A DNA stretch of 64,000 bases, taken from assembly GCA_030949385.1 (NCBI GenBank), contig JAUZSP010000007.1:67210-131209 (forward strand), read 5' to 3'. Origin of the DNA: Gammaproteobacteria bacterium (GTDB taxonomy: Bacteria > Pseudomonadota > Gammaproteobacteria > JAUZRS01). Position 1 is the stretch's first letter. Every line of letters starts with the position of its first letter. Below are positions 18,781 through 24,987 of this stretch, piece by piece. The position numbers and the translations under genes are program-made. Below the pieces are notes generated by a model. It saw only the letters and a program-made list of their open reading frames with translations, did not search any database and was not told the DNA's origin.

Positions 18781-19874
18781 GTGAACAGCCCAAAATACGG
18801 GTGATGCTGATGAACGATTCGCTCAATATGGGCGGCGCTGAAACCATGATTTTCAGCCTCATCTGTGATCTGGATGCCCAACGCATCACACCCTACGCCC
18901 TCTCCATGTCCGTTGATGATGCCCTCAAACAGACCTTTTTAGACACAGGCATCCCCGTCTATGAGTGCCCGAAAGGATCCGGCTTAGATTGGAAACTGCC
19001 GCTGCGCATCGCCAAAATTTTACGCCGCGAAAAAATCGAAATCCTACACACCCACAACTTTGCCTCATGGCTCTGGGGCGGGCTGGCCAGCCTCTTTGCC
19101 CCACGTTGTAAATTGGTACATACACAGCACTCCAACATCGTCCTCAACCGCCTACCACCCAAACCGCTGCGCGCCTTGCTGGCACGGATCAGCAAAAAAG
19201 TGGTGACGGTCAGCGACCCCGTGGCCGAGCATCTGCAACGGGACGGTTTTGCCCCCGCCAACAAACTGCAAGTGATCTACAACGGCATCCCTCTCAAACC
19301 CGAGCAGCACGCCAAAGACCCTGATTATCGTCATCTGGCCATAGTGGCGCGTTTGGTGCCAGTGAAAAACCACGAATTATTGATTCGCAGCTTTGCCCAA
19401 GCCTGCCAACTGCAAAACAACATCAAACTGGACATTCTTGGCGATGGCCCCTTGCGAGATGAACTACAGCACCTCAGCAACAGCCTCGGCATGGACAGCA
19501 AAATCAAGTTTTGGGGCGAAGTCCCCAACGCCCGCGCTCTGATGACCAGCTTTGATGCCTTTGTGCTTAGCTCCCTCAGCGAAGGGCTTTCCATCTCCAT
19601 TTTGGAAGCCCTCGCCGCCGGTCTGCCGGTAATCGCCACCGATGTGGGTGGCAATGGCACCTTGGTACAGCATCAAAAAAATGGCTTACTGGTGCCGTCA
19701 GAAGATCAAGATCAACTGGCGGCGGCCATCAATCGCCTCTTAGGTGATAAAAAATTGCGCGAACAGATGAGCAAAAAAAGTCTGCACATCGTCACCGAAG
19801 GCTTTTCCAATCAGACCATGGTTGATCATTACCAACAGATTTACGCCCACGCTTTGGGACGAACCACGTTGTAA
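18777..19874 (+). CDS. Glycosyltransferase family 4
   Basis: GGAE N-terminal loop, ARLVPVKNH, EGLSISILE (EX7E), ATDVGG. Confidence 0.9.
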   Translation: MSEQPKIRVMLMNDSLNMGGAETMIFSLICDLDAQRITPYALSMSVDDALKQTFLDTGIPVYECPKGSGLDWKLPLRIAKILRREKIEILHTHNFASWLWGGLASLFAPRCKLVHTQHSNIVLNRLPPKPLRALLARISKKVVTVSDPVAEHLQRDGFAPANKLQVIYNGIPLKPEQHAKDPDYRHLAIVARLVPVKNHELLIRSFAQACQLQNNIKLDILGDGPLRDELQHLSNSLGMDSKIKFWGEVPNARALMTSFDAFVLSSLSEGLSISILEALAAGLPVIATDVGGNGTLVQHQKNGLLVPSEDQDQLAAAINRLLGDKKLREQMSKKSLHIVTEGFSNQTMVDHYQQIYAHALGRTTL

Positions 19875-21061: not shown

Positions 21062-22219
21062 ATGCCCATTGCCGCTTACCCGCTGCTGCTGCTGTTTTTT
21101 CTGCTCGGCGGCTTTTTCCTCTATCTGCTGTTGCTCGCCTTTTGGGGGATCAAAGTTCGCCCCACAAGCAGTGAACCCCCCGCCTACCGTTTTAAACTGT
21201 TAATCGCCGCCCACAACGAAGAGCACAGCCTTGATGGCCTGATGCAGTCGATCAAAAACGCCAACTACCCCAAAGAATTAATCCAAACTCAATTTATTGC
21301 CGACCACTGCGACGACGCCACCGTCGAGGTCATTCGTGGGCAAGGCTTTGAGGTCATTGACCGTCAGCAAGGGGCGCGAGGCAAATCCGCCTCCATTGCT
21401 GAGGCGATGAATAAGCTGATCCCCGATCTGGATGAAGAGAAAGACGTGGTGCTGATTTTTGATGCAGACAACCTTATTGACCGCGAATTTTTTAATGAAA
21501 TGGCCAAAGCCTTAGCCAACGGTGCCGAGGTGGTACAAGGCAACACCGGCATTCACAATCGCTACGCCAGCCTCTTTACCAAACTCAATCACGTTAATTT
21601 TGCCGTCACCAATCGTTTTAAAGAGCTGGCGCGCAGCCAAGCCGGTCTCACCTGTCGTTTGCGTGGCCACGGCATGGCCTTTCGTCCCTCGTTGATCAAG
21701 CAGCTCAACTGGCAAGCGGGTACTTTGGTGGAAGATCAAGAGATGGTGTTGCAGTTGGTGCTCAAAGACCAGCGGGTTCGATGGGCGCATCGAGCTGAAG
21801 TCAACAGCGTCATTCCCGACTCACCCAAAGCCGCTGCGGCGCAGCGCAAACGCTGGGCAGGAGGCAAAAGCGAGCTGACCAAAAACGCCACCCGAGTGTT
21901 ATTCGACAAAGCCCGCACGGATAAAAGCCCGATTGCCTTTGATCTGATGATGGATTATATAATGCCCTCCTACGCCATTCAGCTCGGCCTGATTATGCTC
22001 TCGACGCTGGCCGCTTGGTTTTTCCTCGGCAACGAAAACTGCCTAACGCACGGCTTTATTCTGCTCACCGTGGCCTTTTTGAGTTATTACTTTATCGCCA
22101 GCCTATTGGAAAAAGTGCCGGTTTTGGTCTTTGCCACCTTTCTGCTCTCGCCCTTTTTCATCTTCTGGCGCGTCTGGATCTTTATCAGCAGCCTACGCGG
22201 AGCCAAAAGCTGGGATTGA
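21062..22219 (+). CDS. Membrane glycosyltransferase family 2 with processive-type motifs
   Basis: IAAHNEE, DAD (DxD), ED and QRKRW (QxxRW); N- and C-terminal TM helices. Confidence 0.88.
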   Translation: MPIAAYPLLLLFFLLGGFFLYLLLLAFWGIKVRPTSSEPPAYRFKLLIAAHNEEHSLDGLMQSIKNANYPKELIQTQFIADHCDDATVEVIRGQGFEVIDRQQGARGKSASIAEAMNKLIPDLDEEKDVVLIFDADNLIDREFFNEMAKALANGAEVVQGNTGIHNRYASLFTKLNHVNFAVTNRFKELARSQAGLTCRLRGHGMAFRPSLIKQLNWQAGTLVEDQEMVLQLVLKDQRVRWAHRAEVNSVIPDSPKAAAAQRKRWAGGKSELTKNATRVLFDKARTDKSPIAFDLMMDYIMPSYAIQLGLIMLSTLAAWFFLGNENCLTHGFILLTVAFLSYYFIASLLEKVPVLVFATFLLSPFFIFWRVWIFISSLRGAKSWD

Positions 22220-22231
22220 TGCCCTACACGC

Positions 22232-22663
22232 CTATTCCCGCCTACGCGGGAATTGACGACCGGCCAAATCATCCAACTCCTTCTGCTCTTTTTTATCCGC
22301 CTGTTGCCTCTCACCCGCCACTAAATTCTGTTGATAGGTGTCAATCACACTCTGTTTTTGATGAGCTGCTCGCCACAACAACAACTGCTGCTGATATTTT
22401 AATTCAAAATCAACAATCACCTGCTGTTGAATCTCAACGGTTTGGCTGATTTTAGCCACAAAACCTTGGTACGACTGAAACTGGTTTACCGAACAATCCG
22501 TAGGTCGTTGGGTGACGTATTCATCACGATAATCCAATAATTGTTGTAACTGGGTTTGTTGTTGAAACAGCGCGTTTTTGGCTTCTGCCAACGCACATTC
22601 GGCCTGCTTTTCTTTCTGTATATAAATCGACTGAATGCCCTGAATACGCTTTGATGCCTGCAC
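22232..22663 (-). CDS. fliJ: Flagellar export protein FliJ
   Basis: QLQQLLDYRDEY, FQSYQGFVAKI, EQKELDDLA; GTG start preceded by GGAG; follows fliI. Confidence 0.9.
   Translation of the reverse strand: MQASKRIQGIQSIYIQKEKQAECALAEAKNALFQQQTQLQQLLDYRDEYVTQRPTDCSVNQFQSYQGFVAKISQTVEIQQQVIVDFELKYQQQLLLWRAAHQKQSVIDTYQQNLVAGERQQADKKEQKELDDLAGRQFPRRRE
22234..22253. repeat. ATTCCC-N8-GGGAAT palindrome (dRS3/REP-like) inside the fliJ 3' end
   Basis: ATTCCCGC-CTAC-GCGGGAAT, 8-bp perfect stem; encodes the terminal FPRRRE of FliJ. Confidence 0.55.
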
Positions 22664-22673
22664 ACGTCACTCC
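22656..22673. repeat. 18-bp direct repeat, copy 1 (contains the fliJ RBS and GTG start)
   Basis: gcctgcacacgtcactcc, identical to 23610-23627; extends to 22 bp with one mismatch. Confidence 0.9.
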
Positions 22674-22712
22674 ATTAGCTTCATTTTGTCCGCGTGTAAC
22701 ACCTTGTTATGA
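22674..22712 (-). other. Putative truncated (left half) integron attC site
   Basis: Minus strand TCATAAC-AAGGT-GTTACACGCGGAC-AAAATGAAGCT; the TAA stop of the upstream gene lies in the RYYYAAC-like inverse core. Confidence 0.5.
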
Positions 22713-22955
22713 AATTTCTTGCCCATGACTCCATAGCTCATACTCACTAATATCAATACTGTTATTCCAAGCTACGGCATAACCACCCTGCTCTACTTGA
22801 ACCGCCTTGAATAAAGCTTGATTTTTTAATGGAGAAAACATCTCTTTAGCCAGCAATGGAGTTATATCATATTTTCTTTTATGATTATTATTAAACTCAA
22901 CGATCAAGGTATGATCATCAATAGCTTTTACCGATTTTATTTTTGGATATGTCAT
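22707..22955 (-). CDS. DUF2442-like protein (putative antitoxin)
   Basis: 82 aa; IKSVKAIDDHTLIVEFNN, F..V.V..GG..VAWNNSIDI..YELW pattern. Confidence 0.75.
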   Translation of the reverse strand: MTYPKIKSVKAIDDHTLIVEFNNNHKRKYDITPLLAKEMFSPLKNQALFKAVQVEQGGYAVAWNNSIDISEYELWSHGQEIS

Positions 22956-22957
22956 TT

Positions 22958-23206
22958 TTAATTCAATGGTTGTAGTTTGTGGAATTCCTGACTATCCCAC
23001 ATCTGTTTCAATTCATGCTTGTTAATGGTAGCCCACTCAACAACCAGTTTTTTGGCTCTTTTTGGTAAATCTCCTTCTATCATTTCAAGGGTGTTTATGC
23101 TGAACAAGCCAACATACTCACCATAAACCGCATGAAAATGTGGTGGCGGATGATCTCCAAAAAATAACTTTATGACTATTCCGTAAAATCTTGCTATTTC
23201 AGGCAT
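22958..23206 (-). CDS. DUF4160-like protein (putative toxin)
   Basis: 82 aa; MPEIARFYGIVI.LF..DHPPPHFHA.YG, G.LP.RA..LV.EWA pattern. Confidence 0.8.
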   Translation of the reverse strand: MPEIARFYGIVIKLFFGDHPPPHFHAVYGEYVGLFSINTLEMIEGDLPKRAKKLVVEWATINKHELKQMWDSQEFHKLQPLN

Positions 23207-23609
23207 GTTGCTTCCTCATATTTTTTTCTGTAACGACTGCAATAATTGGCGTTTTATAAAAATATTTCTGAATGGACGACCCACAGCACCCACTCCGCCT
23301 CTGTAATAAATAGCCAATTCTTAAAGGCCAACCACCTCTTCTGTAAGCAGAAACATATACATCAAATAGAACAATATTACCATAAAAAATACGGCCATTG
23401 GCCATTATCAGTAAAATCAAAATAATCTATTAAAACCTAATATTGCACCCTGAGTGAAAAAACATGCAAACAATTCCCCTCCCCTGGAGAGGTGACTCAA
23501 AAAAGTGGGGGCTAATTTCTGCAACCAAGGGAAATAATGAGGAACGTTCAGCTAAGCCTCACAATTAAGTAGCACGAAAGCCTTGTCAAGGCATAACATC
23601 CATTTAGGA

Positions 23610-23627
23610 GCCTGCACACGTCACTCC
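23610..23627. repeat. 18-bp direct repeat, copy 2 (immediately after the fliI stop)
   Basis: gcctgcacacgtcactcc, identical to 22656-22673. Confidence 0.9.
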
Positions 23628-23628
23628 G

Positions 23629-24987
23629 TTATTGTGCCTCCGGCAGGGCTTGTTTTAACTCCGCCAAAGACTCGACCAAGGTTACTTTTTCTGACATATT
23701 TTGCGCCAAAAAAGCCATCAACCTTGGATGCTGTTCAATCGCTTCATCAATGCTCGGATCGCTGCCTTTTTGATAAGCCCCCACATTGATTAAATCTTCA
23801 TTTTGCAGGTATTTTGAGTACATTTTCCGAAACCGCTGCGCGCTCTGCTGATGATCTTGATCGGTAATCGCTGTCATACAACGGCTAATAGAAGCCTCAA
23901 TGTCAATGGCAGGAAAATGCGCCTGCTCGGCCAGCCTCCTTGCCAACACAATGTGACCATCCAAAATGGCGCGCGCCGAATCGGCAATGGGGTCATTTTG
24001 ATCATCGCCCTCCACCAGCACGGTATAAAACGCGGTAATCGAACCGCCTTGATCACCGCCGTTACCGGCGCGCTCCACCAACTGCGGCAGTTTGGCAAAC
24101 ACCGACGGCGGATAACCTTTGGTGGCTGGAGGTTCACCAATGGAGAGGGCGATTTCACGCTGCGCTTGGGCAAAACGGGTCAACGAATCCATCAACAACA
24201 GCACGTTTTTGCCTTGATCACGAAAATATTCCGCAATGCTGTTGGCCAACAGCGAACCGTGAATGCGCATCAAAGGCGACGTGTCCGCTGGAGCCGCCAC
24301 CACCACGGCTTTTTTCATCCCTTCGTCGCCTAAAATCTCTTGGACAAACTCTTTTACCTCGCGCCCTCGTTCACCGATCAACCCCACCACCACCACATCG
24401 GCGCTGGTATGCCGAGTCATCATGCCAAGCAAAACACTTTTACCCACCCCGCTGCCTGCAAACAACCCCAAACGCTGACCTCTGCCAACGCTGATCAGGC
24501 TGTTGATCGCTCGCACGCCCACATCCAATACATCCCGAATCGGTTCACGACTTAAGGGGTTAATGGCCTTGGCATCCAGCGAAACAAACGCCTCTGCTTT
24601 GATGCTGCCTTTCAGATCCAGAGGCTGGCCGTGACCGTCCAACACCCGCCCTAAAAGCGATTCACCAACGGCAATTTTATACACCCCCTGATAGGGAATC
24701 ACGCGCGCATTGGGTACCAAACCTTGCAATGAGGTGGTGGGCATTAAAAACAGTTTGTCGCCACTAAAGCCCACCACCTCCGCTTCAATCGTCACGCCAC
24801 CAGGAGCCACAACCTGACACCGAGCACCGATGGGGGCATGACAGCCCACCGCCTCCAAGGTCAAACCCACCATGCGGGTTAATATCCCCTCCACTGGCAA
24901 GGTCGGCAGCGGCGCTAAATGAGTCCGAATGGCTTTTATCCGCAATGGCCAGCGATAACCATCGGCTAAAACCGATTCATCGACCAT
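23629..24987 (-). CDS. fliI: Flagellar export ATPase FliI
   Basis: GLFAGSGVGKS Walker A, LIGERGREV, MDSLTRFAQAQREI, GEPPATKGYPPS. Confidence 0.97.
   Translation of the reverse strand: MVDESVLADGYRWPLRIKAIRTHLAPLPTLPVEGILTRMVGLTLEAVGCHAPIGARCQVVAPGGVTIEAEVVGFSGDKLFLMPTTSLQGLVPNARVIPYQGVYKIAVGESLLGRVLDGHGQPLDLKGSIKAEAFVSLDAKAINPLSREPIRDVLDVGVRAINSLISVGRGQRLGLFAGSGVGKSVLLGMMTRHTSADVVVVGLIGERGREVKEFVQEILGDEGMKKAVVVAAPADTSPLMRIHGSLLANSIAEYFRDQGKNVLLLMDSLTRFAQAQREIALSIGEPPATKGYPPSVFAKLPQLVERAGNGGDQGGSITAFYTVLVEGDDQNDPIADSARAILDGHIVLARRLAEQAHFPAIDIEASISRCMTAITDQDHQQSAQRFRKMYSKYLQNEDLINVGAYQKGSDPSIDEAIEQHPRLMAFLAQNMSEKVTLVESLAELKQALPEAQ

Follow-up and report, generated by a model that had tools for sequence, protein, structure and literature searches.

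A probable cassette-array insert with a DhiTA-type toxin-antitoxin pair and half an attC site between fliI and fliJ of a gammaproteobacterium

How a toxin-antitoxin gene pair came to lie between two consecutive genes of a flagellar operon, and whether it did so as an integron cassette, are the questions raised by this locus, which we analysed within the whole 64-kb stretch of DNA hereafter called the window. The initial annotation had read positions 22674-23222 as a gene cassette that escaped from an integron. The cassette part of that reading holds, but the extent does not: the inserted segment is 932 bp long and includes 375 nt of extra AT-rich DNA upstream.

The gene pair and its insertion site

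The first gene of the pair encodes a DUF4160 protein of 82 aa resembling the toxin DhiT (22958..23206, minus strand; Pfam PF13711, E 1.2e-19), and the second a DUF2442 protein, also of 82 aa, resembling the antitoxin DhiA (22707..22955, minus strand; Pfam PF10387, E 2.2e-12). Both gene identities had been recognized correctly at the outset. The antitoxin gene begins 2 nt past the toxin stop codon, and the locus therefore presents the toxin-first DUF4160/DUF2442 bicistron that makes up the gene content of DhiTA. In Dickeya dadantii 3937, DhiTA is a type II toxin-antitoxin system of these two domain families, in which the toxin blocks growth, co-expression of the antitoxin averts the block and the complex represses the promoter (PMC8198452). 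By analogy with the Dickeya system, the pair in the window would encode a growth-inhibiting toxin and its neutralizer. The DUF4160 protein scores 90.8 bits against the NCBIfam toxin_DhiT model, under its equivalog cut-off of 100, while NCBIfam models gave no match to the DUF2442 antitoxin.

Association between the two families is nearly constant, with DUF2442 adjoining DUF4160 in 91 of 93 loci. Searches with the toxin yielded 2,557 DUF4160 homologues, of which the best 120 share 79-95% amino-acid identity across many phyla. The conservation of this toxin is unusual in that these best 120 span Gammaproteobacteria, Desulfobacterales, Aminicenantes and other groups; relatives also occur in 19 viral contigs. 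The AlphaFold2 model of the toxin, a confident one (pLDDT 94.6), has no fold match in the PDB (best E 0.4, TM 0.35), in agreement with PMC12065111, and sequence searches of the PDB returned nothing significant (best E 0.2 and 0.38). A reading of DUF4160 as an HUH-type single-strand nuclease, for which an HFH motif is present, was dropped, there being no PDB fold match, no significant PDB sequence match and no PADLOC hit. In a different genomic setting, a type VI secretion locus with VgrG, DUF2169 and a PAAR-like toxin (L003:7140-8503) harbors two tandem DUF4160/DUF2442 pairs, which adjoin HicB-like and PIN genes.

The segment carrying the pair in the window (23609-22678, minus strand) lies between two copies of a 22-nt direct repeat. 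Upstream of it is fliI, encoding the flagellar ATPase (23629..24987, minus strand; Pfam ATP-synt_ab, E 2.5e-87, and T3SS_ATPase_C, E 3.1e-28), and downstream is fliJ (22232..22663, minus strand; Pfam FliJ, E 1.2e-18). The left copy of the repeat, TAACGGAGTGACGTGTGCAGGC (23610..23631, minus strand), comprises the fliI stop codon together with a duplicate of the fliJ ribosome-binding site (RBS) and GTG start, and the right copy, TAATGGAGTGACGTGTGCAGGC (22656..22677, minus strand), supplies fliJ with its working RBS and GTG. With the consensus TAA[C/T]GGAGTGACGTGTGCAGGC, the two copies in the window are identical at 21 of 22 positions and spaced 954 nt apart; in a second genome bearing the same insert (L001), they are identical at all 22. 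The DNA enclosed by the repeats has a GC content of 30-40% (35-40% in the leader at 23235..23609), compared with ~52% in the flanks.

The ancestral arrangement is preserved in loci L094-L097, where the genes follow the same order as in the window, fliI and fliJ are separated by 10 nt and the junction is present in a single copy. The protein collection contained only three FliJ homologues, one at 94% identity from the insert-bearing L001 and two at 73-75% that led to L094-L097. Because the repeat flanks the insert and L094-L097 carry a single junction copy, the low-GC segment bearing the toxin-antitoxin pair is a derived insertion in a 10-nt fliI-fliJ spacer, and 22 bp of its target have been duplicated. 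At the left repeat, the duplicated fliJ RBS and GTG open an ORF of 21 codons (MQAPKWMLCLDKAFVLLNCEA; 23617-23552, minus strand) that extends into the insert and, lying downstream of fliI, may serve as a decoy for translation initiation.

Insertion sequences, transposons and MITEs are recognized by a transposase and/or inverted repeats and by a short duplication of fixed length, and the insert does not conform to this description. No terminal inverted repeats join its ends, the window contains no transposase gene, the only genes in the insert are those of the toxin-antitoxin pair, and no second copy of it occurs within the 64 kb.

The two ends of the insert and cassette-borne relatives

A cassette origin is indicated by the 3' end of the insert. 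As initially annotated, the TAA stop codon of the DUF2442 gene (22709-22707) lies within TCATAAC (22712-22706, minus strand), and the exact fliI/fliJ junction repeat follows at a distance of 39 nt from the T of this heptamer. The interval 22678..22712 (minus strand) has the organization of an attC left arm, with TCATAAC as R'', AAGGT as spacer (22705-22701) and GTTACACGCGGACAAAATGAAGC as L'' and stem (22700-22678); the sequence directly after TCATAAC, AAGGTGTTACACGCGGACAAAATGAAGCT, occupies 22705-22677. At 22712-22687 the layout is TCATAAC / AAGGT / GTT-A-CAC-G-CGG-A-C, which places an R'' ending in AAC at the stop codon, followed by a 5-nt spacer and an L'' with extrahelical bases, as is typical of cassettes.

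The similarity of this stretch to an attC left arm, which the initial annotation had anticipated, was assessed in several ways. The window sequence CATAACAAGGTGTTACACGCGGACAAAATGAAGCT is identical at 32 of 35 nt to a complete 87-nt attC from a metagenome (L165), including 12 of the 13 positions left free by the search pattern, and two of the three differences fall at bulged positions, where the same variants occur within the attC family. In loci with DUF4160 homologues, attC hairpins had been found by structure alone. An independent HMM of the left arm, for which 13 attC sites from unrelated cassettes were used, placed its top match of the whole window at 22711-22689 (minus strand), with an E-value of 1.5 over ~128,000 positions that corresponds to ~1e-5 for a pre-specified site. 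The covariance model R1 (alignment A1), comprising 30 sites of the metagenome attC family whose collection relied on a search pattern taken in part from the window, likewise located its best match in the window at a start of 22712 (E 0.1), aligning only the left arm (model positions 1-37). The whole-window E-values of both models are weak, and they are convincing only for a site named in advance.

Consistent with the suggested loss of the right half of attC, the right arm proposed by R1 lies 73 nt away, inside fliJ, and involves non-standard pairs. No R' or L' partner of the half-site was found: neither the loop nor any of the right arm is present, so that the window lacks the R''-L''...L'-R' palindrome of a complete attC and the arm is cut at the stem-loop junction.

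The family to which this arm maps is abundant. A degenerate motif covering the window and L014 sequences, TAACAAGGYGYTRCACKCGGRC, is matched exactly at least 120 times in contigs from metagenomes, for an estimated chance expectation of a few. Single attC hairpins of 70-100 nt ending in GTTAKRY were obtained on folding 48 of 81 occurrences, in which the R boxes pair, the central spacer stays unpaired and three bases bulge from the left arm. Full-length IntI is encoded near attC sites with this motif in L119 and L164 (TIGR02249, 450 and 488 bits; cut-off 265). Judged by its sequence, the stretch 22712-22678 represents the left arm in an attC family that is abundant and occurs beside genuine integron integrases.

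Rfam scans of 21500-24500 and of the whole window returned nothing relevant and no attC family. Among viral contigs, an exact 20-mer of the half-attC had one match (L219), where the context looks coding and neither R'' nor the spacer is present, and this match is probably due to chance. A Methylococcales MAG carries the closest genome homologue, at 93% amino-acid identity, and in this locus (L014:10495-11260) a group II intron lies on the opposite strand in the attC loop that follows DUF2442 (Rfam Intron_gpII, 49.3 bits; group-II-D1D4-3, 76.5 bits). The motif CCCACA..ACC..GCRTRCGGGTCCGYAC recurs in L009, L014 and L017, and in L014 it corresponds to the Rfam intron match on the reverse strand. 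A group II intron was also considered as the cause of the attC break in the window and rejected: the L014 intron occupies a different position in the hairpin, and the window contains no intron remnant.

If the pair did travel as a cassette, related pairs might be expected in cassette arrays. On scanning 80 genome loci with DUF4160 homologues, R1 identified attC sites with an R'' overlapping the stop codon of DUF2442 in L016 (E 1e-7), L021 (E 3e-6) and L026 (E 1e-9), bearing out the claim that homologous pairs reside in arrays. The L021 contig, of 3.2 kb, contains four near-identical attC sites, with the pair between the third and the fourth, and in L026, L004-L013, L060 and L017 the pair is preceded by divergently oriented IntI fragments. 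Homologues are thus found inside attC arrays or beside intI, as integron cassettes are. Most pairs among the 80 loci have no attC nearby, and neither do the distant pairs, mostly cyanobacterial and at 70-73% identity. Because three loci carry attC and the distant pairs do not, the DUF4160/DUF2442 family comprises both cassettes and ordinary chromosomal modules and is not exclusively cassette-borne. These cassette calls were made with the covariance model in place of a hairpin scanner applied at fixed positions, which detected 5 of the 79 genome loci examined and, among 395 controls, 3 and 11, and was too insensitive to estimate cassette frequency. In a Thiotrichaceae MAG (L020:9654-12492), 63-nt repeats (CCCAAACTCTGTTTGGGAACGC...GAGTTTAGA) flank the pair and neighboring small genes, and may represent another attC type with AAAC/GTTT cores.

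The scarcity of attC beside most homologous pairs, above all the cyanobacterial ones, and the weak whole-window E-values of the half-site are what would be expected if the pair were an ordinary chromosomal module with no cassette past and its resemblance to attC a coincidence. We consider this extremely improbable, since the attC-like string shares 32 of 35 nt with a real attC arm, has its R'' on the stop codon as in the cassette homologues and ranks first in the window under two independent models, and since its variable positions are bulged bases that vary within the family too.

The 5' boundary of the putative cassette is less sharply marked. TATGA is indeed present nine nt before the ATG (23220-23216, with the ATG at 23206), but its designation as the 5' core did not hold up: it is a chance 5-mer overlapping the Shine-Dalgarno region, and the homologous position is occupied by GTTACAG (23228..23234, minus strand), with 28 nt separating it from the ATG. 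Other DUF4160 loci cease to align with the window at the nucleotide level at 23223-23235. At the corresponding place, 16-45 nt ahead of the ATG, seven cassette or candidate loci (L009, L014, L016, L021, L024, L026 and L043) have GTTAGGG, GTTATGG or GTTATGA, and in L021 this core is the end (R') of a model-verified attC. The GTTACAG at 23234-23228 is therefore likely to be the cassette 5' core, a remnant of R' cut at G|TT, as judged from positional homology only; it was not singled out by the right-arm HMM, by R1 or by a weight matrix of independent right arms (rank 1761 of 127,974). An attC just upstream of GTTACAG was also sought. A stem (AATTGGC.../...GCCAATT) exists there, but it folds no better than shuffled sequences (z ~0), and the right-arm HMM, R1 and the weight matrix gave such a site no support.

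Between this core and the left repeat lies an AT-rich leader of 375 nt (23235..23609, minus strand), foreign DNA that is possibly the remnant of a gene-less cassette. Its ORFs have no Pfam match, R1 detects no attC in it, it folds no better than shuffled sequences, and nothing similar to it was found in plasmids, in viral contigs, elsewhere in the window or in the 1.9 Mb of loci collected for comparison. On the operon strand (minus), the leader presents two terminator-like hairpins with T-rich tails (23492-23476 and 23405-23391) and a promoter-like site (23433-23404); the terminators, if functional, would be polar on fliJ. Near the left end of the insert, TGGATGTTATGC (23602-23591, minus strand) resembles the end of an attC right arm. 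It is the only match in the window to the pattern TGGNNGTTAKRY, which was designed after viewing the sequence, and an independent matrix ranks the site 485 of 127,974. The resemblance is a hint that the insert derives from an array fragment with more than one cassette. The idea that the two insert ends are halves of one circularly permuted attC was dropped, given that the arms are not complementary and that TGGATGTTATGC ranks low.

Origin and spread of the insert

Taken together, these features make it quite likely that a fragment of a cassette array, consisting of the leader, a complete DhiTA-type cassette body and an attC left arm, entered the fliI-fliJ spacer of an uncultured gammaproteobacterium without the involvement of IntI. 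The truncation of attC, the duplication of 22 bp and the absence from the 64-kb window of intI (tblastn with IntI1) and of a second attC argue against an insertion made by IntI, in line with the route proposed initially; the locus does not have the intI, attI and array of an integron platform. IntI cuts R' at G|TT, leaves attC whole and creates no duplication, and does so alike at attI, attC and attG sites (bioRxiv 10.1101/2022.09.11.507474).

IntI insertion outside integrons is nonetheless documented and yields isolated cassettes, or SALINs (bioRxiv 10.1101/2022.09.11.507474), and the target contains AAC/GTT at the fliI stop codon, TAAC. IntI might thus have placed a complete cassette at a secondary attG site (GWT), with a later deletion removing the right half of attC. 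Such a sequence of events is very unlikely: IntI recombination does not generate the 22-bp duplication seen here, the cassette should start with the TT of R' at the junction, where instead 375 nt precede the core, and the deletion would need an endpoint exactly at the duplicated junction.

Under the preferred reading of an array fragment inserted without IntI, a linear piece of the array would have been captured by illegitimate end-joining or template switching. Its attC would have been broken where the hairpin loop begins, and the fragment may have snapped at the attC hairpin itself; that the break coincides with the stem-loop junction hints at cleavage of the hairpin or template switching there. 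Capture would have duplicated 22 bp of target comprising the fliI stop codon and the fliJ RBS and GTG start. By virtue of this duplication fliI still terminates and fliJ keeps its own start signals, which may be why the event survived. With half of the recombination site gone, the cassette is not excisable by IntI, and the pair is a toxin-antitoxin module fixed in the chromosome and oriented like the flagellar operon. We know of no documented bacterial mechanism for a 22-bp duplication around a non-transposon insert.

Comparison with the second insert-bearing genome (L001, 'Gammaproteobacteria bacterium', GCA_030950195.1) adds a temporal dimension. Between window positions 22656-23631 and L001:1446-2465, the insert is identical at 928 of 932 positions (99.57%), with 500 of 500 in the toxin-antitoxin pair, whereas identity in the flanks is 94.8% for fliI and 93.3% for fliJ. 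The insert junctions are identical in the two lineages, and beyond the repeats the first mismatches appear at a distance of 16 nt towards fliI and of 0-7 nt towards fliJ. At 5-6% divergence, the binomial probability of four or fewer differences in 932 nt is ~1e-16 to 1e-20. The near-identity of the insert between diverged flanks indicates that it is much younger than the lineage split, and a single old illegitimate event does not account for it. Exact look-ups of the DUF4160 and DUF2442 proteins returned the L001 contig only, and those of the window FliI and FliJ returned no contig. Outside the insert, window positions 19600-19799, in a glycosyltransferase cluster, are 76% identical to L001, against 87-97% elsewhere, and constitute a local divergence hot spot.

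To explain the shared young insert, we favor transfer between lineages through homologous recombination in which mismatch repair restored the markers on either side, because this requires nothing new. The contrast between the near-identical insert (928/932) and its flanks (94.8% and 93.3%), the return of divergence at or near the repeats and the use of the same junctions in both lineages would also fit a small non-autonomous site-specific element, in which the 932-bp unit circularizes via its 22-bp repeats and enters empty fliI-fliJ junctions. The 22-mer would then serve as an att core, and the agent would be a host or trans-acting recombinase or short-homology recombination. We regard such an element as unlikely. 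Transformation followed by homologous recombination and mismatch repair would give the same pattern, the unit has no recombinase gene, and its carriers are two genomes at one locus, with no other copy found. In addition, RecA recombination usually needs more than 22 bp, and the repeats fall below that length.

A small chance, no greater, is likewise given to the unit being, rather than a dead fossil, a recently mobile module that entered, or was exchanged between, lineages ~6% apart, always at fliI-fliJ and with the 22-bp repeat. This could reflect an as yet undescribed manner in which array fragments move, either by circularization via the 22-bp repeats or as a copied fragment inserted at a staggered break; insertion at a staggered break would explain the unusual length of the duplication. 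If true, this would amount to an integrase-free route by which integron cassettes reach core operons. Homologous recombination between lineages nevertheless remains the mode of transfer that we favor. The locus presents two modest puzzles, the 22-bp duplication and the youth of the insert relative to its flanks.

Comparison with known systems

The half-attC is probably missed by attC covariance searches of the kind used to detect SALINs, because R1 finds its left arm only. Remnants of this type probably escape covariance-model searches such as IntegronFinder, and the flow of cassettes into chromosomal loci may consequently be underestimated. On the preferred reading, the locus would provide a clear and datable case of integrase-free cassette escape, fixed inside a conserved operon, if otherwise a fairly ordinary fossil, and DhiTA-type pairs would join the toxin-antitoxin systems carried as cassettes. 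A toxin-antitoxin module and possible terminators between fliI and fliJ could also affect flagellar gene expression.

Overall, the feature is a fresh example of known things, namely integron cassettes, isolated cassettes and DhiTA modules. It shares with DhiTA the order of a DUF4160 toxin followed by a DUF2442 antitoxin, with few nucleotides between the genes, and differs from it in that the Dickeya locus has not been reported as a cassette and in that the window toxin scores below the DhiT cut-off. As in CALINs, cassette material is present without an adjacent integrase, but a CALIN requires at least two intact attC sites (PMC4889954), and the window has none. With SALINs it has in common a single cassette located away from an integron platform (Loot et al., bioRxiv 10.1101/2022.09.11.507474); theirs, however, possess a complete attC at a GWT site without duplication, whereas the insert described here has half an attC and 22 duplicated bp.

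The closest parallel is found in the cassettes of sedentary chromosomal integrons with the 73/87/93-nt attC family (L021, L026, L119, L164 and L165). Unlike these, the pair in the window has only the left arm of attC, belongs to no array, has no intI within 64 kb, lies inside a flagellar operon between copies of a 22-bp duplication and is not a substrate for IntI. The same gene pair occurs among them as a cassette, and like them the window pair has R'' on the stop codon, a matching spacer and three-bulge L'' arm, and a likely GTT-type core ~25-30 nt before the ATG.
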